Assembly: GCA_963733835.1 (NCBI GenBank)
Contig: CAVTER010000015.1
Location: 561,988 to 625,987, forward strand
Source of the DNA: an uncultured Spirochaetota bacterium
GTDB taxonomy: Bacteria > Spirochaetota > Spirochaetia > SZUA-6 > Fen-1364
Direction of reading: 5' to 3'
DNA length: 64,000 nucleotides
This document shows positions 37,265 through 53,827 of the stretch, one piece after another; the stretch's first letter is position 1, and each line of letters opens with the position of its first letter. A program made the position numbers and the translations under genes. The notes below the pieces were generated by a model, which was given only the letters and a program-made list of their open reading frames with translations, did not search any database and was not told the origin of the DNA.

Positions 37265-38044
37265 TCAGGCCCGGACCAGCAGCACCGCGAGCAGGCACAC
37301 CGCCGACAGCCCCGCCGCGACCGCGAGGTCCGCCGCGAGGGCGCCCCCCCTCTTCAGCTCGGCGAAGGAGCTGCGCGGGTTGGGTCGGCCGAACCCCCGG
37401 GACTCGAGCACCATCGCGAGCACGGGAATGCCCTTGACGGCCTGGATGAGTACCGAGGTCAGGATGGGCAGGAAAGTCTTTGCCGCCCCCCGCCATGCGT
37501 GTCGGGCCCCCGAGGCAGGCCCGCAGCGCAGCCTGTGCGCGTCCTGGACATTCCTGTAGGTGGAGGCGAGAGACGGGAGGGAGCGGAACGCGATGATCAC
37601 CACCAGGCACGCCGAGTAGGGCAGGCCGAACCACCGCAGCGCGAGCACGAGGTCGTCGAGCTCGATGCTGCGGAAGGCGGCAAAGAAGGCGAGGCTGATG
37701 CCCCCGAAGCGCAGGATCATGGCCAGGGCAGCACGCAGCCCGCCGCCGGTCACCAGGGCGAAACCCCGCACGGCGAGCAGCACCGTGCCGCTCCTGTGGA
37801 ACAACGGCGTGAGAAGCGCGATCAGGATCAGCACTGGCAGGATCGGCCGCAGCGGCACCGTGAGCTCTGACGGGCCGAACGCCGCCCCGATGACACCCAG
37901 GAGAAACGCGACGAGGCAGGCGCTCACGACGACGGGAGCGGGGATCAGGAGGCTCACTGTCACCGGTGCGAGGAGGAGGAGCTTCGCGCGCGGATCGAAC
38001 CTGTGCAGGAAGCTCGTTCCCGGTTTGAAGAAATCCACCGCCAC
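37265..38044 (-). CDS. ecfT: ECF transporter transmembrane (T) component EcfT
   Basis: C-terminal section of ORF 37265-39517 (…FLHRFDPRAKLLLL… CbiQ-like). GTG start overlapping the ATPase stop. Confidence 0.65.
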   Translation of the reverse strand: MAVDFFKPGTSFLHRFDPRAKLLLLAPVTVSLLIPAPVVVSACLVAFLLGVIGAAFGPSELTVPLRPILPVLILIALLTPLFHRSGTVLLAVRGFALVTGGGLRAALAMILRFGGISLAFFAAFRSIELDDLVLALRWFGLPYSACLVVIIAFRSLPSLASTYRNVQDAHRLRCGPASGARHAWRGAAKTFLPILTSVLIQAVKGIPVLAMVLESRGFGRPNPRSSFAELKRGGALAADLAVAAGLSAVCLLAVLLVRA

Positions 38045-39640: not shown

Positions 39641-40834
39641 ATGACCATGGCGGGGATCGACGCACGCAAGAAGAAGGTGGTGGCGGATATCATCCGGCAG
39701 CTGCACGACGGGCTTGCCGTCGAGCAGGCGAAGGAGCGCATCCTGCGCGAGGTCGGCACGCTGAGCTCGGCGGACATCACCACGATCGAGCAGTCGCTCA
39801 TCGACGAGGGGGTGTCCCCCGACGAGATCAAGAGGTTCTGCAACGTGCACGCGCTCCTTTTCGAGGCGGCCCTCGAGGAGAAGGTGGCGACCCCCGAGTC
39901 CTCGTCGCACCCGGTCAACATGCTGCGAAGGGAAAACCGCGAGATCGAAACGCTCCTTGCCGGATTCAAGGCCGCCGTCCAGGAGCTTGCCGGCCCCGGG
40001 CGCGCGCATGCGCTGGCCGCCGTGAAGAGCCGCCTCGAGAAGCTGGCAGGCGTGGATACGCACTACGCCATCAAGGAGAACGCGATCTTCCCGTACCTCG
40101 AGAAAAACGGCTTCCCGGGGCCCTCCAAGGTCATGTGGGGAAAGCACAACGAGGTGCGCGCAATGATGAAGGACGCCTCTGCCGCGCTGGCCCGCGGCGA
40201 GGCGGACCCCGCGGCGCTCACCGCGCTGGCAACCGAGATCGAGGGGATGATCTTCAAGGAGGAGAACATCCTGTTCCCCGCCGCCCAGGAGCGCATCAGC
40301 GTGAAGGAGTGGGTCGAGATCCTCAAGGCCTGCGACGAGATCGGCTACCCGTACGTGCGCGGATCCGCGCTGCACGAGGCCCTCGTCGAAACGGGGAAGC
40401 TGGAGGAGCAGGCCGCGGCCCTCGGAGCGGGCGAGGTCGTCATGCCCAGCGGCAGGCTGTCGCTGGAGGAGCTGGTGTCCGCGCTCGACACTCTGCCCAT
40501 CGACATCACCTTCGTGGACGCCAACGACCGGGTCAAGTACTTCTCGCAGTCGAAGGAGCGGATCTTCGTCCGGGCAACGTCGGTGATCGGCAGGAACGTC
40601 GAGAACTGCCACCCGCCCCAGAGCGTCCACAAGGTCAAGGCCATCGTGGATGCCTTCCGGGCCGGAACCCGCGAGCACGCCGACTTCTGGATCCGGATGC
40701 ACGGCAGGTTCGTGTACATCCGCTACTTCGCCGTGCGCGGGGCCGAGGGCAGGTACCTGGGCACCCTGGAGGTGACGCAGGACCTCACCGAGATCATGAA
40801 GCTGGAAGGGGAGCGACGGCTCCTGGACGACTGA
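39641..40834 (+). CDS. DUF438 / hemerythrin-like plus PAS-like domain protein
   Basis: 397 aa. Architecture typical of DUF438 proteins commonly encoded next to NO/O2-detoxifying flavodiiron or hcp genes. Confidence 0.55.
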   Translation: MTMAGIDARKKKVVADIIRQLHDGLAVEQAKERILREVGTLSSADITTIEQSLIDEGVSPDEIKRFCNVHALLFEAALEEKVATPESSSHPVNMLRRENREIETLLAGFKAAVQELAGPGRAHALAAVKSRLEKLAGVDTHYAIKENAIFPYLEKNGFPGPSKVMWGKHNEVRAMMKDASAALARGEADPAALTALATEIEGMIFKEENILFPAAQERISVKEWVEILKACDEIGYPYVRGSALHEALVETGKLEEQAAALGAGEVVMPSGRLSLEELVSALDTLPIDITFVDANDRVKYFSQSKERIFVRATSVIGRNVENCHPPQSVHKVKAIVDAFRAGTREHADFWIRMHGRFVYIRYFAVRGAEGRYLGTLEVTQDLTEIMKLEGERRLLDD

Positions 40835-40861
40835 CAACCGCGGGCAGGAGGAGAGACGGTC

Positions 40862-42052
40862 ATGGTGACTGAGCTGGCGAAGGACGTCTTCTGGGTCGGA
40901 GTGGTGGACTGGGGCCTGCGCCACTTCCACGGCTGGGAGCTCTCCACGCATCGGGGCTCTACCTACAACGCCTACCTGGTGAAGGACAGGAAGATCGCCG
41001 TGGTGGACACCGTGTGGGGGCCTTTTGCCGACCGCTACATCGAGAACCTCCGCGAGGTGGTGGACCCCGCGCAGATCGAGTACGTGGTGGTGAACCACGC
41101 CGAGACCGACCACTCGGGCAGCCTGCCCGCGCTCATGCGCCTGTGCCCCGAGGCGACGGTGGTCGTCTCGCCGCGGGGAAAGGACAGCATCCCCGGGCAT
41201 TACCACCAGCAGTGGAAGCTGAAGGTCGTGAAGACCGGCGACTCGATCAGCCTGGGCGAGACCGAGCTGGTGTTCGTGGAGGCGCCGATGCTGCACTGGC
41301 CCGACAGCATGTTCACCTACGTCAAGGGGCGCAGCCTCCTGCTGTCCAACGACGCCTTCGGTCAGCACTACGCCACCTCGATGCGCTTCAACGACCAGGT
41401 GGACCAGGAGGAGCTGTACGAGGAAGCGGTGAAGTACTACGCCAACATCCTCACCCCTTTCAGCGAGCTGGTGCTCAGGAAGATCGACGAGGTGGTGGGC
41501 CTCAAGCTGCCCCTGGACATGATCTGCCCCAGCCACGGCGTGATCTGGCGCAGGGATCCCCTGCAGATCGTCACCGCCTACCAGCGGTGGGCCAGGCAGG
41601 AGCCCGCGCGCTCCGCGGTCATCCTGTACGCAACGATGTGGGAAGGGACCGGACGCATGGCGGGGGCGATCGGCACGGGGCTCGCCCGGGCCGGGGTTCC
41701 CTACAAGATCTTCAACATGGGAACGACGGACAGGAACGACGCGATCAAGGAGCTGTTCAAGGCCAGGGCGGTCCTCGTGGGGTCACCGACAGTGAACAGG
41801 GGGCCCCTGGCGACGCTGATGCCCGTGCTCGAGGACATGCGGGGGCTTCGCTTCAAGAACAAGATCGGCGCGGCCTTCGGCTCCTTCGGGTGGAGCGGCG
41901 AGGCCCTGGGCCTGCTGGAGGAGCACCTGAAGGCGGCGGGCATCCCCCTCGCAGCGCCGGGGGTCAAGGCCCCCTGGCAGCCCTCCACGGCCGACCTGGC
42001 GGCGTGCGAGGCGCTGGGCGCGGCGGTGGCGAAGGAGATCCTGAAAGCCTGA
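40862..42052 (+). CDS. Flavodiiron protein (A-type flavoprotein, FprA/NorV-like without rubredoxin domain)
   Basis: N-terminal MBL-like di-iron domain (HAETDHSG) plus C-terminal flavodoxin domain (AVILYATMWEGTGRMA). Confidence 0.85.
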   Translation: MVTELAKDVFWVGVVDWGLRHFHGWELSTHRGSTYNAYLVKDRKIAVVDTVWGPFADRYIENLREVVDPAQIEYVVVNHAETDHSGSLPALMRLCPEATVVVSPRGKDSIPGHYHQQWKLKVVKTGDSISLGETELVFVEAPMLHWPDSMFTYVKGRSLLLSNDAFGQHYATSMRFNDQVDQEELYEEAVKYYANILTPFSELVLRKIDEVVGLKLPLDMICPSHGVIWRRDPLQIVTAYQRWARQEPARSAVILYATMWEGTGRMAGAIGTGLARAGVPYKIFNMGTTDRNDAIKELFKARAVLVGSPTVNRGPLATLMPVLEDMRGLRFKNKIGAAFGSFGWSGEALGLLEEHLKAAGIPLAAPGVKAPWQPSTADLAACEALGAAVAKEILKA

Positions 42053-42066
42053 GCGGGTCCGGGGCC

Positions 42067-42237
42067 TTCAGCCCTGGCGCACGCCCCTGCCGTCCTCGCC
42101 GGTGGGGGCGTCCTTTTTCCGCGGCCCCTTGTACAGCTTGACGACCCAGTAGGCAAACCACAGGAGCGAGAAAAGCAGCGGGACGCCGACGATCACGATC
42201 TTGAGAAAGGCGGGGCTCACGGACTCACAGTAGCCCA
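42067..42237 (-). CDS. Small membrane protein (56 aa), hypothetical
   Basis: Hand-translated MGYCESVSPAFLKIVIVGVPLLFSLLWFAYWVVKLYKGPRKKDAPTGEDGRGVRQG*, single TM. Below the ORF-track length cut-off. Confidence 0.3.
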
Positions 42238-42305
42238 TCGCGGGCGCGCGTTCAACCCGGCACCGCCCTTTGCCCTCCGGGCTGATCCGGCGCTACATTG
42301 TGTGC

Positions 42306-42612: not shown

Positions 42613-43143
42613 TTACAGCTTGTAGAGAACCCCGATGCCGTAGTTCGAGGCCCAGCCGACGTAGCCGTAATCCAGCAGGAGGAACAGCTTCGGGTTGAGC
42701 TTCCACGCGAGGCCGTTGAACGAGGCGAAACCGAAGTTGACGCCGCTCCAGCCCCAGTAGGTGCCGGTGGTCCCATAGACCCCGAGGCCGAGGGAGACGT
42801 ACACGTCGAACTCCAGCGACTTGCCGAAATTGAACCCCGTGTGAAGGCTGGCAAGCGGAGCAACGCCCCAGTCCACCCACCCACCGCCGATGAAGAGCGG
42901 GAGCTGGACCACGCCCCTGCCCATGATACCCCACTCGAAGGGCATCGGGCCGAGGTTGAACTTCCCGACCACGTACTCGGCTCCCACCCCGAGGCTCAAT
43001 CCCGAGTAGCCGTACAGGCCAACCGAGCCGTACAGGTTCACATTGCCCGGCTTGTGGAAAGCCGCGAACGGGGCATCGGCGAATGCGCCGACAGCGCCGG
43101 CCAGCAGCAGCACTGCAACCAGCACGACAACAATTCTCTTCAC
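42613..43143 (-). CDS. Small outer-membrane beta-barrel protein (OmpW/OmpA-N-like)
   Basis: AAGGAGG RBS plus GTG start. Signal peptide VKRIVVVLVAVLLLAGAVGAFA, then alternating aromatic/Gly beta-strands ending …GIGVLYKL. Confidence 0.6.
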   Translation of the reverse strand: MKRIVVVLVAVLLLAGAVGAFADAPFAAFHKPGNVNLYGSVGLYGYSGLSLGVGAEYVVGKFNLGPMPFEWGIMGRGVVQLPLFIGGGWVDWGVAPLASLHTGFNFGKSLEFDVYVSLGLGVYGTTGTYWGWSGVNFGFASFNGLAWKLNPKLFLLLDYGYVGWASNYGIGVLYKL

Positions 43144-43238
43144 AGTCGTCCTCCTTGCGTGAGTAGTCACTCGGTCAATTGTCCCCCAAACACGCGAAAA
43201 GTCAAGCGCCGGCCGCCGCGCCCGCGGTGCTCTCCCGC

Positions 43239-44206
43239 TCAATAGGTCCTGTGCAGCAGCCGGTCCGCCACCGCGTGCAGCGTCCGCCGCGCCCCGGTGT
43301 CCGGCGAGCCGGGCGATCTCGCGCAGCGACCTCTCGGTGTACGCCCTCGCGAGGCGGCGCGCGCCCTCCAGGCTCCCCCTCTCGGAGATCATCCCGACGA
43401 TGCCCGCCAGGCGCTCCGCCGTGTAGGGAGGATCGGCGAGCGCCGCGGCGAGGCTCCCGTCGTCGGCGCGCAGCCCGAGGACCACGGGGAGGGTGAAGAT
43501 GCCCTGCGCGAGGTCGGACCCCGTCGGCTTGCCCGTCTCCGCCGCCGTGCCCTCGAAGTCGAGGATGTCGTCGATGATCTGGAACCCCATGCCGAGGCTG
43601 TAGCCCAGCCTGACCAGCGTCTCCCGGACACCGGGGTCGCACCCGCTCTCGCGGGCGCCGACGTGGAAGCTCAGGGCGAAGAGCACGGCGGTCTTCCCGG
43701 CGATCGTGCGCAGGTAGCGCCGCAGGCTGGGGTCGACCCGGTAGCGGTCGCCAGCCTGGCGTATCTCGCCCGCGCAGATCTGTGCCACGAGCGCGGCCAT
43801 CGCCCGGGCAGTCCCCATGTCCGCGAACTCGGCGACGAGGGAGAAGGCGGCGGCGAACAGCCAGTCGCCCGTCAGGACAGCGGCCTTGTTGCCCGCGAGC
43901 GCGTGCAGCGTCTGGATGCCCCTGCGCACGGAGGCCTCGTCGATGATGTCGTCGTGCACGAGGGTGGCCAGGTGCAGCATCTCGACGGCCGCCGCGGCAC
44001 GACGCACGCGCCCGGATCCGGCGCGCCGAAGCTCGCGGCGAGCAGCACGAAAGCGGGCCGCAGCATCTTGCCATTCGACTCCACCAGCCGGCGCACGGCG
44101 GCCGCCACGGGGCCGTCGCCGCCTCCCGTCCTCGGGAGACGATCTCCCCGCGCACGCGCTCGAGCAGGTCCGACAGCTCCGGGTGGCCTTCCCAGAAGCT
44201 CCGCAT
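43239..44206 (-). CDS. Polyprenyl (hepta/octaprenyl) diphosphate synthase, DmkB/HepT-like; 3 frameshifts
   Basis: Both aspartate-rich motifs (LVHDDIIDEA, FQIIDDILDF). N-terminus MRSFWEGHPELSDL… and native-looking C-terminus …EIARLPDTGARRTLHAVADRLLHRTY* recovered in shifted frames. Confidence 0.75.
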
Positions 44207-44209
44207 CGG

Positions 44210-46144
44210 CTATTTCTTTTTCTTCTTCAGCGTCGGCTCGTCCACGTAGAGGTAGGTGCGCTGGGCAAGGCGCGTCCCGTTCCACCACTTCTGCAGCCAG
44301 GGCATGACCCAGTGGTCCAGCCCGAAGCCCCTGCCTGCCCCGCCGATCATGACGAGCGAGACGGCGATGTACCACAGGATCTCCTTGCCCGCCATGGCCC
44401 CGAGCAGGAACATGATGCTCAGGCCGATGGAAACGACGGCGGCGACCGCGGTGAAGAGGCCGCCCACGAGCGCGAGACCGATGAGGACCTCGGCGAGGAC
44501 GATCACGACCTGGAAGAAGAAGGGCGCCTTCGAGACCAGCGCGTCCACCAGCCAGGTGTACAGCCCGGCCGGCTGGCTCAGAAGCGCAGCCCCCGCGCCG
44601 CTTGCGGCCGCCGCGGAGGCGGCAGCCGTCGCGTCGGCAGCCTGGGCCACCGCGGCTGTGGCCGCCGCGGTCGCATCGGCGGCCTGCACCGCCGCCCCGG
44701 TGGCCGCGGCTGTCGCTTCCGCCGCCCCCTCGCCCCACCCCGCTGCCGAGGCCGAGGCAGTGCCCTCCGTGGCGATGATGAAGATCTTCCCGGGCGTCAG
44801 CCACCCCTTGGTGATCTTGCCGATGCCCTCGATCAGCCACATGACTCCGAGGAACACGCGCAGGACGGCCATCCAGTACCCGCGGGTGTTTGCAGCCGCG
44901 AGGCTGCCGAGCACGGAACGCCCGTTCTTGATGTCGAGGAACTCGTGCTTCAGGTACTCCCAGACCTGGTTGATCCCCGCAACGCCGAGGAAGTGGATCA
45001 CGTTGATCAGGTGCTTCGAGGCGATGGCAAAGATGCCCGTCAGCGGGATGCCCAGGACGTGCGCGACGCCCCAGCCGGCGCCCAGGGACACCATGTTGCC
45101 GTGGTAGCTCGAGCGGAAGGCCTTCTTCGGGGTGTCCTCGATCTCGGCGACGATGTTGTGCGCGGCGGTGTCGGCCGTCTGGACGGCGGTCTCGACGATC
45201 TGCGGCAGCATCTTCTCGCCCTCGGTGAAGCACACCACGTCCCCGACCACGTACACGTCGGGGTAGTCGGTGGTCTGCATGAACTCGTTGGTGTGCAGTC
45301 TCCCGTGCCTGCGCGCGATGGAGAGGCGCAGGCTCGAGGCGAACTTGCAGGCCTTGATCCCCGCTGTCCAGATGAATGTCTTCGTGGCGATGCTGCCCTT
45401 GCCCCCCAGCAGCACCTTGCCCGGCTCCGCTCCGGTGATCGGCGTGCCGAGGAGGAACTCCACTCCCCTCCTCTCGAGGTAGCGGCGGGCCTTCTTCTGC
45501 AGCTTCTCGGGCATGGTGGGAAGGATCTTGTCGACTGCCTCGATCACGACGATGCGGACCTCGGAGGGGTCGATGCCGTGGTCGCGGCACAGCTGCGCGC
45601 GCCAGTCCTTCAGCTCGCCGGCCAGCTCCATGCCCGTGAATCCCGCTCCCGCGATCGCGAAGGTCAGCAGCTCGGCCCGCTTCGCGGGGTCGGTCTGCTT
45701 GGAGGCCTGGCTGACCATGTCGTGGATGTGGCGGCGGATCGCCACCGCCTCGCCGAGGGACCACAGCGTGAAGGCGTTCTCCTTGATCCCGGGGATGTCG
45801 TAGAACTCCGGCTCGGCGCCCACGCCGATCACGAGGTAGTCGTAGGGGTATTCTCCCACGCTCCCGACCAGCTTACGGGCCTTGAAGTCGATGGTCGTGA
45901 TCCTGTCGGTGACGAGCGTGACCTTCTTGCCGCCGAAGATCTTGCGGAAGCTGATCTCCACGGCCCCCGGCTCCACGCGGCCACCGGCAACCTCGTGCAG
46001 CTCCGTCATGAAGGTGTGGTACGGGTTCTTGTCGACAAGGATGATCTCTATGTCACGGCGCTTCTTCAGCTTCCTGTACAGGCCCTTGACGGCCTCCACG
46101 CCGCCGTAGCCGCCGCCAAGTACAACGATGCGCGTGTGTGTCAT
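44210..46144 (-). CDS. ndh: Type-II NADH dehydrogenase (NDH-2) with about 240 aa C-terminal Ala/Thr-rich linker plus 2-3 TM extension (Ndh2-like)
   Basis: Two Rossmann motifs (VVLGGGYGG, IAGAGFTGMELAGEL). The C-terminus has the low-complexity AAEATAAATGAAVQAADATAAATAAVAQAADATAAAS segment and hydrophobic helices. Stop is 4 nt from the polyprenyl synthase start. Confidence 0.8.
   Translation of the reverse strand: MTHTRIVVLGGGYGGVEAVKGLYRKLKKRRDIEIILVDKNPYHTFMTELHEVAGGRVEPGAVEISFRKIFGGKKVTLVTDRITTIDFKARKLVGSVGEYPYDYLVIGVGAEPEFYDIPGIKENAFTLWSLGEAVAIRRHIHDMVSQASKQTDPAKRAELLTFAIAGAGFTGMELAGELKDWRAQLCRDHGIDPSEVRIVVIEAVDKILPTMPEKLQKKARRYLERRGVEFLLGTPITGAEPGKVLLGGKGSIATKTFIWTAGIKACKFASSLRLSIARRHGRLHTNEFMQTTDYPDVYVVGDVVCFTEGEKMLPQIVETAVQTADTAAHNIVAEIEDTPKKAFRSSYHGNMVSLGAGWGVAHVLGIPLTGIFAIASKHLINVIHFLGVAGINQVWEYLKHEFLDIKNGRSVLGSLAAANTRGYWMAVLRVFLGVMWLIEGIGKITKGWLTPGKIFIIATEGTASASAAGWGEGAAEATAAATGAAVQAADATAAATAAVAQAADATAAASAAAASGAGAALLSQPAGLYTWLVDALVSKAPFFFQVVIVLAEVLIGLALVGGLFTAVAAVVSIGLSIMFLLGAMAGKEILWYIAVSLVMIGGAGRGFGLDHWVMPWLQKWWNGTRLAQRTYLYVDEPTLKKKKK
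44600..44760 (-). repeat. Imperfect in-frame tandem repeats encoding an Ala/Thr-rich linker inside ndh2
   Basis: gccgccgcgg…ggcggc(c/a)tg(g/c)…accgc repeated units translate to AAVQAADATAAAT / AAVAQAADATAAAS. Confidence 0.5.
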
Positions 46145-46225
46145 GGGTGTCCTTCTCCGGGAAAAACTATTCGTGCCCGGCCCGCAACCGACCGGGACCT
46201 TTCATGTTCCATGGCCCGGGCAGGT

Positions 46226-46255
46226 TTGTCAAGGCGCCCCGACGCGTGGTATAAG
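46226..46255 (+). promoter_or_regulatory. Candidate sigma70-type promoter for apbE
   Basis: TTGTCA, 18 nt spacer, then TATAAG, ending 6 nt before the first ATG (46262) and 42 nt before the alternative ATG (46298). Confidence 0.35.
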
Positions 46256-46261
46256 CGCGGC

Positions 46262-47443
46262 ATGCGCCTTTTCCGCGGTTTTTGGCTCTGTCCGGCCATG
46301 TCCCTCGCCGTCTGCCTCCTCGCCGCCCCGGTCCCTGTCGCCGCGCGGGGAACCGCGGAGCAGCCGCGGTCACGGACCGAGGTCGGGCTGCTGGGCACTT
46401 CGTGCACCATCACCATCTACGGCGGGTACTCGGAAGCCGCCCTCGATGCCTCCTTCGCCCGCATCGCGCAGATCGAGCAGCGCATGACGGTGAACAGGGA
46501 GGACAGCGAGGTCGTCAGAGTGAACCGGGAAGCCGGAAAGCGTCCCGTCCAGGTGTCGGCCGACACCTTCGCGGTCATCTCCCGGGGCCTTGAGATCTCG
46601 CGCGCGGGTAACGGCGCCTTCGACATCACCGTCGGGCCGCTCGTGAAGCTCTGGGGCATCGGGACGGCCGCGGCCCGCGTCCCGTCAGCCGCCGAGATCC
46701 GCCGCGCACTCGCGCTCGTGGACTGGCGCGGCGTGACCCTGTCGCAGGCCGACTCCTCGGTGTTCCTCGAGCGGAAGGGAATGGCACTCGACCTGGGAGC
46801 GATCGCCAAGGGCTACGCGGCCGACGACGCCGTCCGCATCCTGCGGGAGCACGGGGTGAACAGCGCGCTTGTCGACCTGGGCGGCAACGTCCTCACCCTC
46901 GGCGCCAAGCCCGACCGGTCCCCCTGGAAGATCGGCGTGCAGAACCCCGAGGAGCCGCGCGGCACGCACATCGGGATCGTCGACGTCGGCGAAACGGCCG
47001 TGGTGACCTCGGGATCCTACGAGCGGTTCTTCGAAGCGGGCGGCCGGCGCTACCATCACCTCCTGGACACAACGACCGGCGCTCCCGTGGACAACGGCCT
47101 GACGGCGGTCATGATCATCTCGGCCAGCTCCACGACCGCGGACGGCTGGTCCACCCTCGCATTCGCTCTCGGCCTCGAGCGCGGTCGGGCAATGGTCGAG
47201 GGGTCGAAGGGAGAGGTGGAGGCGCTTTTCATCACGAAGGCCCGTGACGTTTTCGTGACGCCGGGGCTTCGAAAGCGCTTCCGGCTCGACAGACCCGCGC
47301 TTCACGCTCAGGGAGTGACGGGCCCCCCCGCCTGCCGTGGGGCCTGCCAGCGGCACACCCTGCGCTGCAGCGCGTCGATGAGCAGGAACAGGAGCAGCCC
47401 GGCCAGCCCGAGGGCGAGGATGCCCGCATACATGTCAGGATAG
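46262..47443 (+). CDS. apbE: ApbE-family FAD:protein FMN transferase (FmnB-like), secreted
   Basis: Signal peptide plus ApbE blocks (…LDLGAIAKGYAADDAV…, …TSGSYERFF…HHLLD…). The in-frame stop is at 47443, but the last approximately 45 codons look non-native and overlap the convergent permease. A +1 shift would end at ~47309. Confidence 0.8.
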   Translation: MRLFRGFWLCPAMSLAVCLLAAPVPVAARGTAEQPRSRTEVGLLGTSCTITIYGGYSEAALDASFARIAQIEQRMTVNREDSEVVRVNREAGKRPVQVSADTFAVISRGLEISRAGNGAFDITVGPLVKLWGIGTAAARVPSAAEIRRALALVDWRGVTLSQADSSVFLERKGMALDLGAIAKGYAADDAVRILREHGVNSALVDLGGNVLTLGAKPDRSPWKIGVQNPEEPRGTHIGIVDVGETAVVTSGSYERFFEAGGRRYHHLLDTTTGAPVDNGLTAVMIISASSTTADGWSTLAFALGLERGRAMVEGSKGEVEALFITKARDVFVTPGLRKRFRLDRPALHAQGVTGPPACRGACQRHTLRCSASMSRNRSSPASPRARMPAYMSG

Positions 47444-48093
47444 GCAAGCCGCATCCAGCTTTCGACGACGAAGTATCCCAGCCCCCGACGCGTCCCGAAA
47501 GTCTCCGCGAAGAACAGGACCGCCAGTGCCGTCCCTGTTCCCACGCGCAGGGCGGACAGCACCTGCGGCAGCACGGCCGGCCAGGTCACGAAGCGCGCAG
47601 TCTGCCATCTGTTCGCGCCCAGGGAGCGAAGCGAGACGAAATACTGTCCCGGGATGTCCCTTGCCGCGTCGCGGACCGACACCAGGACCTGGAAGAACAG
47701 CACGAGAAAGACGATCGACACTTTGGACGCGTCAGCAAGTCCGAACAGCAGCATGACGACGGGCAGGAGCGCGATCTTCGGCACGGGGTACAGGAGGTAG
47801 GTAGCGGGCGAGAGCGCCCTCCCGACTGCACGCGAACGGCCCATGACAAGACCGAGCGGTACCGCGGTCAGCAGGGCGAGGGCCAGCCCCGCGGCGATCC
47901 GGGCGAGGCTCGAAAGGGCGTGCAGGCCAAGGAGCCGGGGCGCAAGCTCGACGAAACGGAGAAGAACCGGCCAGGGGCCTGGAACCACAACCCCACCCGT
48001 GGCGACCGACAGGAGCCACCAGGCAGGAAGTAAGGAGAGAGCAACCGCAATTCCAGCCAGATTCCACTTGAATCTGTATCTTTCAGTGCTCAT
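47308..48093 (-). CDS. ABC transporter permease (NitT/TauT / SsuC family)
   Basis: 6 TM helices and EAA-like loop region. Start MSTERYRFKWN at 48093. Confidence 0.75.
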   Translation of the reverse strand: MSTERYRFKWNLAGIAVALSLLPAWWLLSVATGGVVVPGPWPVLLRFVELAPRLLGLHALSSLARIAAGLALALLTAVPLGLVMGRSRAVGRALSPATYLLYPVPKIALLPVVMLLFGLADASKVSIVFLVLFFQVLVSVRDAARDIPGQYFVSLRSLGANRWQTARFVTWPAVLPQVLSALRVGTGTALAVLFFAETFGTRRGLGYFVVESWMRLAYPDMYAGILALGLAGLLLFLLIDALQRRVCRWQAPRQAGGPVTP

Positions 48094-48838
48094 TTGGGAC
48101 AACCCTGTGCTTTTCCAGTGAACTTCGTATCTTTCTCTCAAGCTCGAAGAAATCACTTGAAGTTCTGAACCCACGCGATCCTCTCCCAGGATTTTCGAAA
48201 TGCTCCACGATCCGTGCCGGCCTGCCAGCAAGCAGGGAAATGGAGTCGCCAAGGAACGCCGCCTCCTCAATGCTGTGTGTCACGACCACGCAGCTCACGG
48301 GGCGCTCCCGTAGCAGGCCCACGAGCAGGTCCTGGAGCGTTTCCCGGGTCATCGCGTCCAGTGCCGAGAAAGGCTCGTCCAGGAGCAGCAGGTGAGGCTG
48401 AAGGGAAAGACTCCTTGCGATGGCGAGTCTCTGCTGTTCGCCCCCGCTGAGCTCGGCGGGAAAGCTCCCCGCGCGGCTGGAGAGCCCGACATGGCCGAGC
48501 AGTGCGGCTGCGGCAGCCATCCGCTCGCGCCTCCCCGCGCCCCTGATCCGCAGGCCGAGGGCGGCGTTTTCCGCCGCAGTGAACCAGGGGAAGAGACCGT
48601 ACTGCTGGTGCACCAGGCTGATCCGCGTGTCCCCCGCGGCGACTGCTGACCCATGGAGCAGGGCATCGCCCGCGTCCGGGGCCTTCAGCCCGGCGGCGAC
48701 CACCAGGAGCGTGGTCTTCCCGCATCCAGAGGGCCCGATGATGCACTCGGTACGGCCCGCGGGGACCTGGATCGAGACACCCTCGATGACCCGCCCCCTG
48801 CCGGGATAGGAGGCACAGAGGTCACGGAGTTCGAGCAT
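48083..48838 (-). CDS. ABC transporter ATP-binding protein (NitT/TauT family)
   Basis: Walker A GPSGCGKTT, signature LSGGEQQR, Walker B LLLLDEPFSALD. Confidence 0.85.
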   Translation of the reverse strand: MLELRDLCASYPGRGRVIEGVSIQVPAGRTECIIGPSGCGKTTLLVVAAGLKAPDAGDALLHGSAVAAGDTRISLVHQQYGLFPWFTAAENAALGLRIRGAGRRERMAAAAALLGHVGLSSRAGSFPAELSGGEQQRLAIARSLSLQPHLLLLDEPFSALDAMTRETLQDLLVGLLRERPVSCVVVTHSIEEAAFLGDSISLLAGRPARIVEHFENPGRGSRGFRTSSDFFELERKIRSSLEKHRVVPNEH

Positions 48839-49766
48839 TGCCGCTTACGAAGGAGCCGAGGACGATGTCGTCCCACGCCGGGAGCTTTTCGATGAGCCCC
48901 TTCTGTTTCATCCACGACGCCACGTCCGCCACGTCGGCAGCCGTCGGCACAAAAGCCCGTCGGTACCGGGGGAACCGAAGGCTCTCGCGCACGGAGGCGG
49001 GAAACTCGCATCGCAGGGCGACCGGAGTGCGAAAGGCGTCGGGCCGGGCATGCAGGTCGGCCACAGCACGGTCGTAGGCGCGGTAGAAAGCGGCGATCTC
49101 CGCCGGCTTCTCGGCGAGCGCCCTGCCCGTGAAGAGGATGACTCCCACCGTCCGGTCGAGCCCGGAAGAGTCGGCCAGGAGTCGCGCGCCCCGCTGCACG
49201 GCTGCCGTCGAAAGCGGCTCTGGGAGGCACGCTGCCTCCACCTGGCCTGCCAGCAGCATCTCCATGCGCACGGGCACCTGCACGATGGGCACGAGCTGCA
49301 CGGAGGCGGGATCGGCCCCGGCTGCCTGCAGGAGCCGCTCGGTGACGTAGAACACGATGCTCGCCTCCAGGAGCCCCGTGGGCACTTTCCGCGTCCCGAC
49401 GGCCTTCCAGCCGGCGAGATCGCCCAGCGCCGATCTCGGCGCGGCGAGCAGCCCGAAGTCCCCCTGCGACGCCGAGGTCACCATGGTGCCGGCGCTCCGG
49501 TTCCACCCCTGGATGGCGTTGATGAGGTCGGAAACCGTCCCGTCGATCGCGTTCGACTGCAGCGCGGCCTCCCTGTACATCTGGCTCTGGAACAGGGTGA
49601 GCGTCACCCGGACTCCCTCGGCCTCGAAGTACCCCCTCTCCTCGGCAGCCACGAGGGGCGCTGAGTTGAGCGCGGGCATGAGGCCGACTGCAAGGTCTGC
49701 GCGGGCGGAGGCGGCCGCGACCAGCGCGGCGAGGGAGCAGGCAAGGAGTCTTTTCACCGGGGACAC
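48822..49766 (-). CDS. ABC transporter periplasmic substrate-binding protein (NMT1/THI5-like, NitT/TauT family)
   Basis: GTG start, signal peptide, SsuA/ThiY-like fold indicators. Confidence 0.65.
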   Translation of the reverse strand: MSPVKRLLACSLAALVAAASARADLAVGLMPALNSAPLVAAEERGYFEAEGVRVTLTLFQSQMYREAALQSNAIDGTVSDLINAIQGWNRSAGTMVTSASQGDFGLLAAPRSALGDLAGWKAVGTRKVPTGLLEASIVFYVTERLLQAAGADPASVQLVPIVQVPVRMEMLLAGQVEAACLPEPLSTAAVQRGARLLADSSGLDRTVGVILFTGRALAEKPAEIAAFYRAYDRAVADLHARPDAFRTPVALRCEFPASVRESLRFPRYRRAFVPTAADVADVASWMKQKGLIEKLPAWDDIVLGSFVSGNARTP

Positions 49767-49767
49767 C

Positions 49768-50691
49768 TCATGGGCGGGGCAGGAGCCAGGCGGCGCAGTA
49801 CAGCGCGCCGTACACCAGGTGGTGAAGCATGACCAGGGGAATCAGAGAGCGGGGACGCTGCAGGTGGCGGACGACGACCAGGGTCGCCGGGACGGCCGCG
49901 GGCATCGCGGCCAGCGTGAGCCAGGGGCGCGGGAAAAGACCCGCCGCGGCCAGGACCCAGGGACCGGCATAGGCCAGCAGGAGGAGGGAGACGTACAGAC
50001 CCGCGGCGGCCCGGTAGCCGATGCGCACGCTCAGCGTCCGGATCCCGTGGCGACGGTCGGCACCGAAGTCACGGATCTCGTTCGTCAGCAGGATCAGAGA
50101 CACCAGGATGCTCACCGGGATCGAGATCCACAGGGCGGGGACCGAGAGAACCCCCGCTGTCGCGTAGTAGGAGCCCTCCACCATCAGCACGCCCATGAGG
50201 AAGAAGACAAACGCCACGCCGAGGCCGCGGCGCTTGTAGTTGAACGGCTCCCCGGTGTAGAAGTACCCGCCGACAAAACCGACCGCGCCCAGGGCGACGA
50301 GCCCCCACCCCGTCCGCCACGCGAGGAAAAGGCCGACGGGCGCCACCAGCGCGAAACAGGCCAGCCCCGACAGGAAGATGAACCACTCCAGCGCGTCCCG
50401 CTCGGCACCGAACACGGCGAGGTGCGCGATCTTGTCGTCAAGTCTCCGCTGCTTGAACTCGAAGAAGTCGTTGACCAGGTTCACGCCGGCCTGCAGGGCG
50501 ATGCCGGCCGCGAGCACGAGGACCGAGTGCAGGAGGCTGCCCCGGCCGTCCCGCCAGGCCAGCGCCACCCCCAGGAAGCACGAGAAGGCGGCGATGACCA
50601 GCGAGGCGGGCCGCAGGGCCTTCACCCACGCCCGTAACGTGCGGGCATCGAACGCTGTCCGCGCGAGGGCGGGGATGCTCGGCAGGGTCAT
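49768..50691 (-). CDS. UbiA-family prenyltransferase, MenA paralog (DmkA-like 1,4-dihydroxy-2-naphthoate polyprenyltransferase)
   Basis: 8-9 TM helices. Asp-rich prenyl-diphosphate motif (GVNLVNDFFEFKQRRLDD) and a second D-rich region. ATG verified at 50691. Confidence 0.75.
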   Translation of the reverse strand: MTLPSIPALARTAFDARTLRAWVKALRPASLVIAAFSCFLGVALAWRDGRGSLLHSVLVLAAGIALQAGVNLVNDFFEFKQRRLDDKIAHLAVFGAERDALEWFIFLSGLACFALVAPVGLFLAWRTGWGLVALGAVGFVGGYFYTGEPFNYKRRGLGVAFVFFLMGVLMVEGSYYATAGVLSVPALWISIPVSILVSLILLTNEIRDFGADRRHGIRTLSVRIGYRAAAGLYVSLLLLAYAGPWVLAAAGLFPRPWLTLAAMPAAVPATLVVVRHLQRPRSLIPLVMLHHLVYGALYCAAWLLPRP

Positions 50692-50755
50692 GACGGGAGA
50701 ACAGTAGCAGAATCGAAAGCGCGGCGCAAGAAAACCGCGACGGCCGAGGCGGGAG

Positions 50756-51392
50756 CTACCAGAGGGGGTGCGGCCTGAGCAGGGTGTACACGAGCGCGGC
50801 CCAGGGGACGGCCACGATGGCGAGAAGCGCCAGCGCCCCGGCCCACGTGGTGCGGCTGGCCAGCGCATCGTGCGGCCCCTGGTCCTCGGCCCCCGCCTGC
50901 ACCTCTTCCAGGAGCCGGTCGATGCTGCCGATCAGGTCCCTGCGCTCGACCTTCGCGCGCAACCCCATGATCCGCTGGAAGTAGAAGAGCGATCTGCCTA
51001 TCAGCCCGCCCACGCGGCCCGGGATCTGCAGGTCCTCGCGCAGGCTGAACTGGGATATCGCGATCATCCCGACCAGCGCGGTAGCCTTGGCCACGCCGTT
51101 TCGCAGCGCCGCCTCCGTGATCGGCCTGCCGGCCACGGTCAGGAGGACCCTGCCCGTCGGGACAAGGAGGTTGAAGAGCACGATCCCCACGGTGACGACG
51201 ATCGTCTGCACAGCCCGGACCCTGCGGCCCCCTGCCGCATTCAGGCCGATGAAGAACAGGATCTCCAGCGCGCGGATACCCGCGTCCTGCTGGAAGAGGA
51301 ACGCCGGCAGAAGGAGCGCTCCCGCGGCGAACAGCGCGCGGGCGGACACAGCGCCCCGCAGCAGCCCGCCGCGCGGGGGCCGCGTGCCGCTC
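50756..51392 (-). CDS. EcfT-like polytopic membrane protein (FmnA-type candidate), hypothetical
   Basis: GTG start overlapping the stop of the upstream Gx transporter (GTGA). About 212 aa with 4-5 TM helices and an EcfT-like loop (…GRPITEAALRNGVAKATALVGMIAISQFS…). Confidence 0.45.
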
Positions 51393-51960
51393 ACAGCCGC
51401 TCCCGGAGCGCGGCCAGCCACCGCGACCTGGCGCTGAACCGCTCCGCGAAGACTCCCAGGAGCGCCGCGGTCGCCGTCCCGAGGGCGAGAAACGGCGGCG
51501 CGATGAGCCACGCCCCCTCCCCGAAGATGAGGAGGCGTGCCAGCACGACCTGGGAGGCGTTGCTGAACAGGGCCCCCAGGACGCTCACTCCGAGCAGCGA
51601 GACCCGGGTCTTGAGCAGGCGTCGGGCCGCGAGCATGGCCAGGCCGCTCGCGAAGGACCCCACGGCCGAGAAGAGGAAGACGTACGAGACGAGGGTCCCG
51701 CTCACCAGGCCCTGCCCGACCACCTTCAGGAACACGACGCCCAGGACGGCCGACGCCGGCAGCAGGTCAACGGCCAGGAGGATCGGCAGGTTCGCGATGC
51801 CCACGCGCAGGAAGGGAACCGGCTTGGGAATCAGGAACTCCAGCGTGGAGAGGAACAGGCACAGTGCGCCCAGGAACGCCACGAGGTCCTGCCGGCCGGA
51901 CAGCCTGCCCGGCAGGAGGCCGACTTCTTCCGACCGGACCGCCCTACCAGGAGCTGTCAT
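51391..51960 (-). CDS. Gx transporter family protein (Pfam Hpt_synt_1 / ECF-S-like, EetB-type)
   Basis: 189 aa, 5 TM helices, motif …LEFLIPKPVPFLRVGIANLPILLAV… Overlaps the upstream NusG-II gene by 17 nt. Confidence 0.6.
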   Translation of the reverse strand: MTAPGRAVRSEEVGLLPGRLSGRQDLVAFLGALCLFLSTLEFLIPKPVPFLRVGIANLPILLAVDLLPASAVLGVVFLKVVGQGLVSGTLVSYVFLFSAVGSFASGLAMLAARRLLKTRVSLLGVSVLGALFSNASQVVLARLLIFGEGAWLIAPPFLALGTATAALLGVFAERFSARSRWLAALRERL

Positions 51961-52309
51961 CGAGCTTCTCCCCCGTTGTGCCGCGCACCCGCACGAAGAC
52001 CCTGTTCGGCAGGCAGGCGATCCACTGCCCCGGTTTCGACACGGCAGCCATGGCGACGCAGAGCTTGTCGGGGCACGGCGAGTCCACGACGCGGGCCCCG
52101 CCCGCGTCAATGACAACGATCGTGTCGCCCAGTGGACCTGCAACGGGCAGGCGGCGCTCCGCCGAGAGAGGGTATATCCATTGCTTTCCAGAGGCCTCCA
52201 CCACGACGTCGCCTGCCCGGGAGGGTCCCGCGTACGCGAACCACGCGGAGGTCCCCACCACGACGGCCGAGAGGATGATCGCGAGGTAGTCGAACAGCCG
52301 CAGCTTCAT
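51944..52309 (-). CDS. NusG-domain-II (DUF1312) single-pass membrane protein
   Basis: 121 aa. N-terminal TM helix, then a beta domain with the signature SPCPDKLCVAMAAVSKPGQWIACLPNRVFVRVRG. The longer ORF start (MPRGTLFF…) merely translates the upstream terminator hairpin. Confidence 0.7.
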   Translation of the reverse strand: MKLRLFDYLAIILSAVVVGTSAWFAYAGPSRAGDVVVEASGKQWIYPLSAERRLPVAGPLGDTIVVIDAGGARVVDSPCPDKLCVAMAAVSKPGQWIACLPNRVFVRVRGTTGEKLDDSSW

Positions 52310-52321
52310 CGGCGCATTCCC

Positions 52322-52353
52322 CGGCAAAAAAAAGAGGGTGCCGCGAGGCACCC
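52322..52353 (-). terminator. Rho-independent terminator downstream of tRNA-Val
   Basis: On the minus strand, GGGTGCC-TCGC-GGCACCC hairpin followed by T8. Confidence 0.7.
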
Positions 52354-52358: not shown

Positions 52359-52433
52359 TGGGCGGCACAAGAGTTGAACTTGTGACCCCTAGCGTGTCGA
52401 GCTAGTGCTCTAACCAGACTGAGCTAGCCGCCC
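52359..52433 (-). tRNA. tRNA-Val (anticodon GAC)
   Basis: Hand-folded cloverleaf: acceptor GGGCGGC/GCCGCCC, D-arm GCTC-AGTCTGGTTA-GAGC, anticodon arm CTAGC-UCGACAC-GCTAG, 5-nt variable loop, T-arm ACAAG-TTCAACT-CTTGT, discriminator A. Position 33 is C (unusual). Confidence 0.7.
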
Positions 52434-52529: not shown

Positions 52530-52919
52530 TCAGCGCGCCGTGAAGTCCCCCGGCTGGATGAACACGATGGTCGAGGAACCGCGCACGTCCATCGAAAGAA
52601 AGGAGATCGCATCGCGGAACCGCTTCACCTTGTACACGTAGGTGATGGGAGGGTCCAGCCTGCGCAGGGCAGCGTTCGTCGGTTTCCAGGACTCGATGAC
52701 GAAAGTCCAGGTGTCGCCCTTCTCTGTGAGCACGCCGGAGAACACGGCAGTTCCATCAGAGGACTCGCGCTGGAGGCGGAACGCCCCTCGCGAGAAGGAA
52801 AGCGTGTCGGTCAGGTCGGTGCTCTGCCAGCTCCATGCGCGCGTGTACACCGTGCCCGCGCAGGACGCCAGGAGCAGCACGGTCGCGGCAACGGCTGTCA
52901 GCAGGACATTCCTCTTCAT
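52530..52919 (-). CDS. Lipoprotein, hypothetical
   Basis: 129 aa, signal peptide with lipobox LLLASC. Confidence 0.5.
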   Translation of the reverse strand: MKRNVLLTAVAATVLLLASCAGTVYTRAWSWQSTDLTDTLSFSRGAFRLQRESSDGTAVFSGVLTEKGDTWTFVIESWKPTNAALRRLDPPITYVYKVKRFRDAISFLSMDVRGSSTIVFIQPGDFTAR

Positions 52920-53827
52920 CTCTGCACACCTCCCTCTTCACGGGCCCAGGCCTTGCGGACGAGCCGGGCCGGGTCGAGAACGATCACCGCTGAGCCATCC
53001 TCCGCGACCCCTCCCCCGGCCGCCCAGGGGCGGCACTCCCCGCCAGTGCGGACGAGCGTGACGGTGCGCACCCCGCCGTGCTCATCCCCGGCGAGGCACG
53101 CGCGCCTGCGGCCCGCGCGCACGATGACACCCGCCAGCTCGGGCTGGCCAGCCCCTTGCCGCGGCGCGGAGGGCGCGAAAAGGCTCTCCAGGAGAAGCAC
53201 GGGAACTGTCTTCCCGTCGCGCGAGACCGCGGTGCTCCGCCTCACGTTCATGCACTCGACGACCGCGGCGCCGGGAATCCCGTACCACCGTCCCCCCGCC
53301 CGCAGGAGCAGGCAGCGCGACGCCCCCGGGAGAACCGGAACCTTCACCTCGGCGGCCGCCCCGCGGCCGACTTTTCCGCCAACCCTGGCCAGGCGTCGAC
53401 CCGCCTCCTCGACGGCGGCGGCAGCCGACCCGGTCCGCTGCGGCCTGCCGCCTGAGAGCGTGAAGGTCACCCAGTCGTCCTGCTGTCGTGCGTCAAGCGA
53501 CAATTTCGCAGAGCCACGCCGCGCGTTGCGGCCCGGCAGGCGGGCTTCCGCCAGGGCGACCAGCGCAGCGCGGACCTCGCTCACGAGGGAGGAGTCGATC
53601 TCCACGTCCAGCCCCGACACCTCCACCGTCGCGCGGGGCGCGAGCGCACGGGACACCGTGCGGAAGACGGGGCCGACCGGAACGAGCCGCGCGCGCGCGG
53701 CCGCGTCGCGGACCTCGCGGGCCGCACCCGCGCAGGCCGAGGCGGCGTCGGTCACCTGCCGCCCGGCGGAGGCGAGGCCGTCCTGCAGCCGGGCCACGAG
53801 CCCCTCGGCTGCGGCGAACCTTTCCAT
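52916..53827 (-). CDS. CheA-like protein C-terminal portion: dimerisation-like region, degenerate kinase core, CheW-like domain
   Basis: …LVPVGPVFRTVSR…VEVSGLDVEIDSSLV… parallels the CheA P3/P4 junction, but the N-box/G1/G2 ATP-binding motifs are missing. The C-terminal 140 aa are CheW-like. Confidence 0.5.
   Translation of the reverse strand: MERFAAAEGLVARLQDGLASAGRQVTDAASACAGAAREVRDAAARARLVPVGPVFRTVSRALAPRATVEVSGLDVEIDSSLVSEVRAALVALAEARLPGRNARRGSAKLSLDARQQDDWVTFTLSGGRPQRTGSAAAAVEEAGRRLARVGGKVGRGAAAEVKVPVLPGASRCLLLRAGGRWYGIPGAAVVECMNVRRSTAVSRDGKTVPVLLLESLFAPSAPRQGAGQPELAGVIVRAGRRRACLAGDEHGGVRTVTLVRTGGECRPWAAGGGVAEDGSAVIVLDPARLVRKAWAREEGGVQR

Follow-up and report, generated by a model that had tools for sequence, protein, structure and literature searches.

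A FLEET-type gene cluster from an uncultured spirochete, with flavinylation-like heptads in a predicted periplasmic loop of Ndh2

A gene cluster at 42.6 to 52.3 kb of a 64,000-nucleotide stretch of DNA from an uncultured Spirochaetota bacterium (GenBank assembly GCA_963733835.1, contig CAVTER010000015.1, positions 561,988 to 625,987; the whole stretch is called the window here) resembles the flavin-based extracellular electron transfer (FLEET) locus of Listeria monocytogenes. Gene content and synteny support a FLEET-type interpretation. We think it probable, though far from certain, that the locus is a FLEET-type module of a free-living member of the Spirochaetaceae, in which electrons from cytoplasmic NADH would be carried to the outer face of the inner membrane by a naphthoquinone and a covalently bound flavin. 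That the electrons proceed to the extracellular medium, as opposed to the periplasm, is an assumption at this locus.

The Listeria FLEET locus reportedly consists of dmkA, dmkB, fmnB, pplA, ndh2, eetA, eetB, and fmnA. For comparison, we used two L. monocytogenes reference loci (L085, NCTC7974, and L086, FDAARGOS_57, both chromosome pieces that are filed as plasmids in PLSDB) and one locus from Enterococcus gilvus (L087). The dmkA gene is split over two frames in L085 (3818 to 4878) and is intact in L086. At a G+C content of about 69%, most long open reading frames (ORFs) in the window are spurious; the real frames were chosen by third-position GC, and the resulting proteins were profiled against Pfam and NCBIfam. 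In BLASTP comparisons with the L. monocytogenes proteins, the window Ndh2 was 40% identical over 631 amino acids (E = 4e-152), ApbE was 42% identical to FmnB (E = 1e-97), the HepT-like polyprenyl diphosphate synthase was 37.5% identical to DmkB (E = 4e-54), and EetB and EetA were 32% (E = 9e-14) and 30% (E = 7e-8) identical to their namesakes. Reverse tblastn with the Listeria proteins against the six-frame window landed on the same genes. Pfam profiles, BLASTP, and fold searches together confirm the FLEET-like set of seven components that a first-pass annotation of this DNA had proposed.

The cluster is laid out as two minus-strand gene blocks with apbE on the plus strand between them (Table 1). 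The first block comprises seven tightly packed co-directional genes, from the eetA-like gene through an ABC permease, in which start and stop codons overlap (for example, GTGA at 51391 to 51394), suggesting a single operon. The second holds ndh2, the polyprenyl diphosphate synthase gene, and a gene for a small secreted protein. The apbE gene is divergent from ndh2, with 118 bp separating the two, and convergent with the permease gene. Méheust et al. (2021, eLife 10:e66878) defined an extracellular electron transfer (EET) cluster by an Ndh that has transmembrane (TM) helices and is encoded no more than five genes away from a secreted ApbE or from an FMN_bind gene; here a four-TM Ndh2 adjoins apbE.

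The window Ndh2 matches Pyr_redox_2 (E = 4.9e-39) and continues into a C-terminal extension. The architecture of a type II NADH dehydrogenase with an extension stood as first annotated, but the extension is about 220 rather than about 240 amino acids long; it is DoxD/DoxX-like and is predicted to cross the membrane four times. The DoxD score of the window protein is borderline (E = 0.021); among 24 Ndh2 homologues, DoxD was matched in 16, DoxX in 15, and HTTM in 8. The alignment to the L. monocytogenes Ndh2 spans residues 1 to 623 and ends 21 residues short of the C terminus, full-length identity to the E. gilvus Ndh2 is 41%, and the C-terminal domain alone matches the Listeria and Enterococcus enzymes (E = 1e-13). 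The suggestion that the extension is a hallmark of EET enzymes is thereby borne out as true homology. Published tables annotate the Ndh2 proteins of Lactiplantibacillus, Paenibacillus, and Sediminispirochaeta with the same C-terminal domain group. An exact-sequence look-up of the window Ndh2 returned no record. About one-third of the long Ndh2 homologues carry, within the NDH-2 domain, an insertion of about 40 amino acids with five cysteines (consensus CxNxxCxxATxxGTCGxKxC) that is missing from the window protein and that may bind a metal or an Fe-S cluster.

ApbE was identified by profile (Pfam E = 9.3e-96), in keeping with the earlier assignment as a secreted ApbE/FmnB. Its hydrophobic N terminus, with a possible lipobox (LAVC), predicts an extracytosolic location. 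The third-position GC coding signal fades at about position 47290, and the last 45 or so amino acids of the ORF may be read-through.

The proposed flavin exporter is represented by EetB, its ECF-S-like, FAD-binding subunit, which matches PF07456, Hpre_diP_synt_I (E = 3.2e-33), and by the single-pass protein EetA, which matches NusG_II (E = 1.1e-21); the first-pass annotation had listed the two as an EetB-type transporter and a NusG-domain-II protein. PF07456 is the family that defines eetB in the work of Rivera-Lugo et al. (2023, mBio 14:e03085-22). The next gene encodes a 212-amino-acid membrane protein; its start had been placed at 51392, which is out of frame, and is correctly at 51394. Two independent methods assign it an EcfT fold, its family comprises about 620 cluster representatives, and of 10 longer family members tested, 9 carry an N-terminal Hpre_diP_synt_I (EetB) domain. 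Fusions of EetB with ECF-T were reported by Rivera-Lugo et al. (2023) and were used there as evidence of the same kind. Based on the fold searches and the fusions, we accept the 212-amino-acid protein as an EcfT-fold partner of EetB, not as a member of the FmnA/CbiQ sequence family. About 5 kb past the end of the locus, and about 11 kb from eetB, lies a RibU-EcfT-EcfAA' module of the energy-coupling factor (ECF) type, the genes of which are intact and syntenic in relatives. In the Listeria model of Rivera-Lugo et al. (2023), the EcfA/A' ATPases serve flavin import and flavin adenine dinucleotide (FAD) export alike. The nearby module fits this shared-ATPase model, and its ATPases could supply the EetB exporter. 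The same study reassigned EetB and found EetA dispensable; both had earlier been candidates for the step at which electrons leave demethylmenaquinol.

The quinone genes are assigned at various levels of precision. The UbiA protein matches its Pfam family (E = 2e-23), its best NCBIfam models are 1,4-dihydroxy-2-naphthoate polyprenyltransferases (E = 5e-44, below the curated cut-offs), and it is about 24% identical to the E. gilvus MenA (E = 9e-13); we propose a DmkA-type role for it. The polyprenyl diphosphate synthase matches polyprenyl_synt (E = 1.2e-53, starting at profile position 42) and a HepT-like NCBIfam model (E = 1.5e-58). Between ubiA and apbE, a NitT/TauT-type importer is recognized by NMT1_2/NMT1, ABC_tran, and BPD_transp_1 in Pfam and, below cut-off, by SsuA_fam in NCBIfam. 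A PDB sequence search for a clue to the ligand of its substrate-binding protein gave only a weak match, to the NrtA-like domain of a nitrate transporter. This NMT1-type transporter occupies the same position in seven related loci (L001, L002, L004, L005, L010, L026, and L052). The first-pass annotation regarded the transporter as setting the locus apart from those of Firmicutes, which cannot be maintained, since the Clostridial UBA701 EET cluster has one beside its UbiA gene (Méheust et al. 2021, supplement).

Relatives of the long Ndh2 number more than 2,000. When GTDB species genomes were scanned, 80 loci had full-length Ndh2 matches of 42 to 80% identity, 13 of them Clostridial and 67 from spirochetes (Spirochaetaceae, Sphaerochaeta, Alkalispirochaeta, Sediminispirochaeta, and Treponematales), and co-occurrence was counted by searching every fetched locus with the window proteins (local tblastn). 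The polyprenyl synthase follows Ndh2 in 64 of the 67 spirochete loci; EetB is found in 15, as is the EcfT-like gene. The ten-gene order, including the ABC transporter, is found in the seven loci just listed and, more distantly, in L057 and L062. The count is a lower bound, so that at least nine related Spirochaetota assemblies share the gene order. The Ndh2 proteins of these relatives are 48 to 80% identical to that of the window. Recurrence of the order in relatives indicates that the cluster is not a chance grouping and argues for selection on the ensemble.

The host is established as a diderm spirochete, as was first suggested, by a FlaA in the window (Pfam E = 6.6e-75), an outer-membrane-type barrel, and the names of the GTDB relatives; the nearest loci are named Spirochaetaceae or Spirochaetota, with Ndh2 proteins up to 80% identical. 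The barrel, encoded at the downstream end of the cluster, is modeled with a signal helix and eight strands (AlphaFold2 pLDDT of 85.8), and Foldseek matched it to OmpA-TM, OmpX, Ail, PagL, and OmpW. The model is thus consistent with the small outer-membrane beta-barrel of the first-pass annotation, of an OmpA/OmpX/OmpW-like kind. Only 12 homologues were found, none with a Pfam match, and the gene is syntenic only in the closest clade (L002, L005, L010, and L026).

In the mechanism that we favor, Ndh2 would oxidize cytoplasmic NADH and reduce a dedicated demethylmenaquinone-like quinone, as its full-length identity to the Listeria enzyme suggests. The MenA-like UbiA protein, an assignment made at the family level, would make this quinone with a side chain from the HepT/DmkB-like synthase, and synteny suggests that the quinone head group might be imported by the co-operonic NMT1-type ABC transporter. 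EetB and the short EcfT-fold protein would export FAD to the periplasm, a step and direction proposed from homology to the Listeria exporter, the EetB fusions, and the fold; EetA would probably assist, and the EcfA-EcfA' ATPases of the neighboring RibU/EcfT module would provide the power. Periplasmic ApbE would use the exported FAD to attach flavin mononucleotide (FMN) to an acceptor. Given that the window has no gene for an FMN_bind protein, this acceptor would be either encoded elsewhere or the periplasmic loop of Ndh2. Speculatively, quinol at the DoxX-like C-terminal domain of Ndh2 would pass electrons to the bound flavin and from there to periplasmic acceptors. The host being diderm, the electrons would arrive first in the periplasm; a diffusible shuttle would be needed to take them outside, and the adjacent small barrel is a speculative candidate route.

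Several observations weigh against this mechanism. There was no Pfam match to FMN_bind in the window and no tblastn match to the L. monocytogenes PplA, in agreement with the original remark that a PplA-like FMN_bind lipoprotein is missing from the locus, and the canonical [ST]GA[ST] motif is absent from every coding segment of the locus. A scan of all window coding segments for that motif returned two matches, at 4280 and 34689, which we rejected as irrelevant. ApbE lies within 10 kb of Ndh2 in just 30 of the 67 spirochete loci, and in two of them (L003 and L008) the long Ndh2 is accompanied by UbiA and HepT only, with neither ApbE nor EetAB nearby. The UbiA protein is only 23% identical to the Listeria DmkA (E = 2e-4); its placement in the UbiA family holds, the MenA-type models that fit it best are matched below their cut-offs, and the narrower DmkA-type role is a proposal. 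The 212-amino-acid protein had no BLASTP match to the L. monocytogenes FmnA and no match in Pfam, in a PDB profile search, or by hhalign, leaving no sequence link to FmnA/CbiQ. Its EcfT-like character therefore survives through the fold and the EetB fusions, but profile searches, which placed EetB in PF07456, did not place it in the FmnA family. Finally, the polyprenyl synthase gene forms no intact ORF in this sequence.

Some of these points would be accommodated if the long Ndh2, the MenA-like enzyme, and HepT were a plain NADH:menaquinone module of ordinary respiration, with ApbE, EetA, and EetB found beside them by coincidence and serving an unrelated flavoprotein elsewhere, such as Rnf/Nqr subunits or a periplasmic reductase. 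The UbiA-Ndh2-HepT trio stands without ApbE or EetAB not only in L003 and L008 but in many further loci, and the window has yielded no acceptor gene. In published surveys, eetB is most often found beside Rnf (Rivera-Lugo et al. 2023), and Nqr-type proteins are among the periplasmic substrates that spirochete ApbE enzymes are known to modify with flavin (Deka et al. 2015, mBio 6:e00519-15). We nevertheless consider a coincidence of this sort unlikely, in that the divergent apbE-ndh2 pair and eetA-eetB keep their synteny with ndh2 across Listeria, Enterococcus, and several families of spirochetes, and that Ndh2 bears the specialized DoxD-like C-terminal domain of EET enzymes, unlike a plain NDH-2.

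The frame breaks of the polyprenyl synthase must be seen against the state of the whole window, where single-base breaks split many conserved genes at roughly one per 5 kb (Table 1). This density is typical of an unpolished long-read assembly, and ORF-level conclusions from the window must allow for such breaks. In the synthase gene, the frame switches at about 44160, 44011, and 43305, each by a single-base indel, and with the intact 321-amino-acid orthologue from L005 as the query, tblastn aligned three pieces in collinear order (frames -3, -2, and -3; identity of about 70%). The DmkB-type assignment thus concerns a clear homologue, but one in three frames. If the frame changes were genuine, the locus would be decaying and the system non-functional in this organism, and it is true that three switches fall inside about 1 kb and that the remaining ten genes of the cluster are uninterrupted while HepT alone is broken. 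Such decay seems to us very unlikely. Breaks of the same type hit the housekeeping genes for PhoH, UvrA, and MutS2 as well as EcfA'; the HepT pieces retain both their identity to the intact orthologue and coding-type third-position GC; a related long-read metagenome-assembled genome contig, L001, shows comparable gene fragmentation; and HepT orthologues in relatives are intact. Since the other genes are broken likewise, assembly indels are probably the cause in HepT too, with three breaks in one gene as a caveat.

We return to the FLEET-type reading and to its acceptor. In other spirochete loci, FMN_bind proteins with DAISGAT or DGVTGAT sites are encoded within 10 kb of a long Ndh2 (Table 1). 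PplA-like acceptors therefore occur in the phylum, and their absence from the clade of the window is lineage specific. Ftp, the ApbE of Treponema pallidum, flavinylates TP0171 and the Treponema denticola NqrC (Deka et al. 2015), so that periplasmic flavinylation of the ApbE type is experimentally established in spirochetes.

In seeking a substitute for PplA, we met canonical flavinylation motifs within Ndh2 itself at several loci, in the loop that joins TM1 to TM2 in the C-terminal domain. A periplasmic location is predicted for this loop, because the C-terminal tail has 8 Lys/Arg in 34 residues and the loop itself is net acidic (2 Lys/Arg versus 5 Asp/Glu). It is rich in Ala, Thr, and Ser and highly variable in length, yet it holds a phase-specific heptad, with the consensus D-A-T/V-S/A-A/G/S-A-S/T, in one to six copies. 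Heptads resembling the ApbE motif, D-x-x-[S/T]-G-A-[S/T], occur in the Ndh2 loops of spirochetes, Clostridia, Listeria, and Enterococcus, and across the Ndh2 family the first one is fixed at about 10 to 14 residues past TM1. The window loop has four (Table 1).

Enrichment was measured in 152 distinct Ndh2-family loops against composition-preserving shuffles; the loop sequences are mutually related, and the counts are not independent events. The [ST]GA[ST] motif was present in 40 loops, compared with 12.1 ± 3.3 in shuffles (maximum, 23), and [DE]xx[ST]GA[ST] was present in 14, compared with 0.7 ± 0.8 (maximum, 4). A relaxed heptad, [DE]xx[STA][GASN]A[ST], a pattern set after the sequences had been viewed, matched 128 of the 152 loops versus 12.1 ± 3.3. 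The frequency of Ser/Thr six residues after Asp/Glu was 0.43 over a background of 0.18. A canonical heptad stands at the first position in L005 (VEGTSGAS), the closest GTDB relative, and in L058, P0028, L056, L060, L017, and L069/L081, the last pair being Caldanaerobacter/Thermoanaerobacter loops that read SDVSGAT..ATSGAT; exact motifs were also seen in the Ndh2 loops of Caloramator and Fonticella. The same loop has TSGAS in the L. monocytogenes Ndh2 and TTGAS in that of E. gilvus. We considered whether the first window heptad, EGTASAS, is a sequencing-error form of the EGTSGAS in L005 and rejected this, as TASAS is common to P0001, P0002, and P0004; with close relatives sharing the window variants, these are not sequencing errors.

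It is possible, although we hold it with less than even confidence, that Ndh2 is its own flavinylated acceptor, with ApbE attaching FMN to Ser/Thr residues of the periplasmic-loop heptads, so that one polypeptide would carry electrons from NADH through FAD and quinone to the loop FMN or FMNs. This would refine the acceptor step of the FLEET-type mechanism and does not exclude that mechanism, and it would explain why PplA is dispensable in the clade of the window. The predicted location of the loop, the enrichment of the heptad and of [ST]GA[ST] over shuffles, the fixed first position, the canonical motif at the same site in L005 and other relatives as well as in Listeria and E. gilvus, and the position of apbE as the immediate divergent neighbor of ndh2 all point this way. 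What has been published on ApbE tolerance does so as well. According to a review of ApbE, the seven-residue motif is sufficient and works in loops and unstructured tails, a G-to-A change keeps about 50% flavinylation, a D-to-A change has a minor effect, and Ser is accepted; Huang et al. (2024) described flavinylation on an unstructured C-terminal extension. On the other side, the window Ndh2 lacks a canonical [ST]GA[ST], Ala or Ser replaces Gly in all four of its heptads, and three of the four have no Ser/Thr at position 4. The relaxed pattern was post hoc and the sequences are related, linkers rich in Ala, Thr, and Ser may repeat for structural reasons, and the sites are not surrounded by a flavin-binding fold. 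Moreover, Listeria pplA mutants are said to lose ferric reduction, which would mean that a flavinylated Ndh2 loop is not sufficient in Listeria. Within the literature library searched, no paper linked Ndh2 to flavinylation. In light of these points, the broader proposal that EET-type Ndh2 enzymes are ApbE substrates, with one to six FMN sites (heptads of the form D-A-T/V-S/A-G/A-A-S/T) in an extracytosolic loop that links demethylmenaquinol to extracytosolic flavoproteins, is likewise offered tentatively, as an idea that the motifs suggest and that may well prove wrong.

FLEET is usually discussed as a Gram-positive trait. The first-pass annotation knew of no description of a spirochete variant, and the novelty so claimed was overstated: in the catalogue of Méheust et al. 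(2021, Supplementary file 1), a cluster from Sediminispirochaeta bajacaliforniensis (NZ_KB899413.1, genes 99 to 104) has the label 'EET.' That cluster, which occupies one row of a supplementary table, is without PplA. Its order is a four-TM protein with no Pfam match, Hpre_diP_synt_I, and a small protein; ApbE comes next and diverges from a 695-amino-acid Ndh, which polyprenyl_synt follows. Data Set S1 of Rivera-Lugo et al. (2023) also includes Spirochaetota eetB contexts. The spirochete form of EET is catalogued but uncharacterized, and the main texts of these papers do not discuss it. The window cluster falls under the same definition as that of S. bajacaliforniensis, has the same core order, and shares the missing PplA, but it differs in that its operon also takes in UbiA and the ABC transporter.

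The likeness to the L. monocytogenes locus extends to a two-domain Ndh2, ApbE/FmnB, a DmkB-like synthase (frame-broken in the window), EetA, EetB, a prenyltransferase of the MenA family (at the low identity to DmkA given above), the divergent apbE/ndh2 arrangement, and a proposed dependence on an ECF-type flavin module. In contrast, the window cluster has no PplA, its operon includes an NMT1-type ABC importer, a gene for a small outer-membrane barrel follows downstream, the ECF-T-like partner is short and recognizable by its fold only, and the diderm host makes the flavin-side chemistry periplasmic. The proposed exporter parallels the EetB-FmnA-EcfA/A' exporter of Rivera-Lugo et al. (2023) in having a PF07456 protein beside one of ECF-T fold, an adjacent EetA, EetB/ECF-T fusions in the family, and EcfAA' shared with a nearby RibU importer, whereas its T-like subunit is about 50 residues shorter than FmnA/EcfT and has no CbiQ profile match. 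The T. pallidum Ftp (Deka et al. 2015) is similarly a spirochete periplasmic FMN transferase of the ApbE type that acts on periplasmic or membrane substrates; however, T. pallidum is described as quinone free and as linked to an Rnf-like pump, and there is no Ndh2/quinone module and no EetAB. The Clostridial EET clusters (UBA701 sp002298125, Caldanaerobacter L081, and Fonticella L011) have Ndh2 proteins 44 to 50% identical over their full length, and in UBA701 NitT/TauT genes lie beside UbiA and the EET genes. These Clostridial Ndh2 loops carry canonical flavinylation-type motifs, and the clusters differ from that of the window in keeping a PplA-like FMN_bind gene, in their monoderm hosts, and in having no short EcfT-like gene within 10 kb.

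Table 1. Features of the cluster, its flavin-import neighbor, frame-broken genes of the window, and FMN_bind genes in other spirochete loci
Feature	Position	Strand	Remarks
eetA-like	51944-52309	-	NusG_II, single-pass; first gene of seven-gene operon
eetB-like	51391-51960	-	Hpre_diP_synt_I (PF07456), ECF-S-like
EcfT-fold membrane protein, 212 aa	50756-51394	-	Proposed FmnA-like EetB partner
UbiA prenyltransferase, MenA-like	49768-50691	-	Pfam UbiA
NMT1-type substrate-binding protein, signal peptide	48822-49766	-	Pfam NMT1_2/NMT1
ABC ATPase	48083-48838	-	Pfam ABC_tran
ABC permease	47308 to ~48100	-	Pfam BPD_transp_1
apbE/fmnB	46262-47443	+	Pfam ApbE
ndh2, 644 aa	44210-46144	-	Pyr_redox_2 plus C-terminal four-TM DoxD/DoxX-like domain
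Ndh2 loop, residues 446-530	44555-44809	-	Predicted periplasmic, Ala/Thr-rich
Loop heptad 1	44747-44767	-	EGTASAS
Loop heptad 2	44699-44719	-	EATAAAT
Loop heptad 3	44657-44677	-	DATAAAT
Loop heptad 4	44615-44635	-	DATAAAS
Polyprenyl diphosphate synthase, HepT/DmkB-like	43239-44206	-	Pfam polyprenyl_synt; broken by three frame changes
Small outer-membrane beta-barrel	42613-43143	-	Secreted, 8-stranded; downstream of hepT
ECF flavin-import module	36698-39517	-	RibU-like S component, EcfT, EcfA-EcfA'
RibU-like S component	36698-37159	-	Pfam ECF-ribofla_trS, E = 8.1e-27
EcfT (CbiQ)	37265 to ~38040	-	CbiQ in 750-aa ORF
Fused EcfA-EcfA'	~38044 to 39517	-	ABC_tran x2; second ATPase domain frame-shifted
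EcfA'	38044-38400		Frame-shifted
PhoH	~22186		Break inside P-loop
UvrA	24540-28782		In at least three pieces
MutS2	~29900		Split
FMN_bind gene, other spirochete	L020:13936-14949
FMN_bind gene, other spirochete	L056:5778-7076
FMN_bind gene, other spirochete	L061:9071-9880

Directly upstream of eetA lies a tRNA-Val(GAC) gene (52359 to 52433, minus strand), identified by Rfam and ARAGORN, with a sigma-70-like promoter at 52487 to 52459 (10 of 12 matches) and an intrinsic terminator at 52354 to 52335. A riboswitch leader at this place, possibly an FMN riboswitch, which the promoter and terminator had suggested, was rejected in favor of the tRNA gene. As a GTG at 52351 falls within the terminator, the eetA start is likely the ATG at 52309, with only about 25 nucleotides between terminator and ATG; the eetA operon may depend on read-through or on a non-consensus promoter. 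A lipoprotein gene (52530 to 52919) and a CheW-like gene (52916 to 53827) were likewise rejected as members of the system, having no counterparts beside the cluster in relatives.

Between the ECF importer and the EET-type locus, at 39641 to 42052 on the plus strand, are two genes with conserved synteny in relatives: one encodes a DUF438-hemerythrin-PAS protein, the other a flavodiiron protein (ODP/metallo-beta-lactamase plus flavodoxin). They hint at a neighborhood concerned with oxygen or nitric oxide stress or redox sensing. Relatives have RtcB and archease genes between an HMA gene and the flavodiiron gene; in the window, their place is taken by a bare gap of about 200 bp (42052 to 42270). 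Farther away, a V/A-type ATPase operon (5600 to 14050, minus strand) encodes subunits that, from their translations, resemble D, B, A, F, K, I, C, and E. It is consistent with a fermentative spirochete that possibly uses an ion gradient.

The locus appears to be a conserved and enlarged version of FLEET in diderm, mostly fermentative spirochetes of sediment and soil, where the module could be an electron sink into the periplasm that regenerates NAD+. Its comparative value lies in the lack of PplA, in the short EcfT-like EetB partner of its own, and in an ABC importer of the same operon as a possible source of the quinone head group. To the question of how electrons leave demethylmenaquinol in FLEET, a flavinylation-type repeat in a predicted periplasmic loop of Ndh2, encoded next to apbE, offers a directly testable answer. 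If the proposal is true, the flavinylated loop of Ndh2 would serve as the last periplasmic redox center in the spirochete clusters without PplA, and, the motif being present in the Ndh2 proteins of Listeria and Enterococcus, loop flavinylation would extend to the archetypal system.

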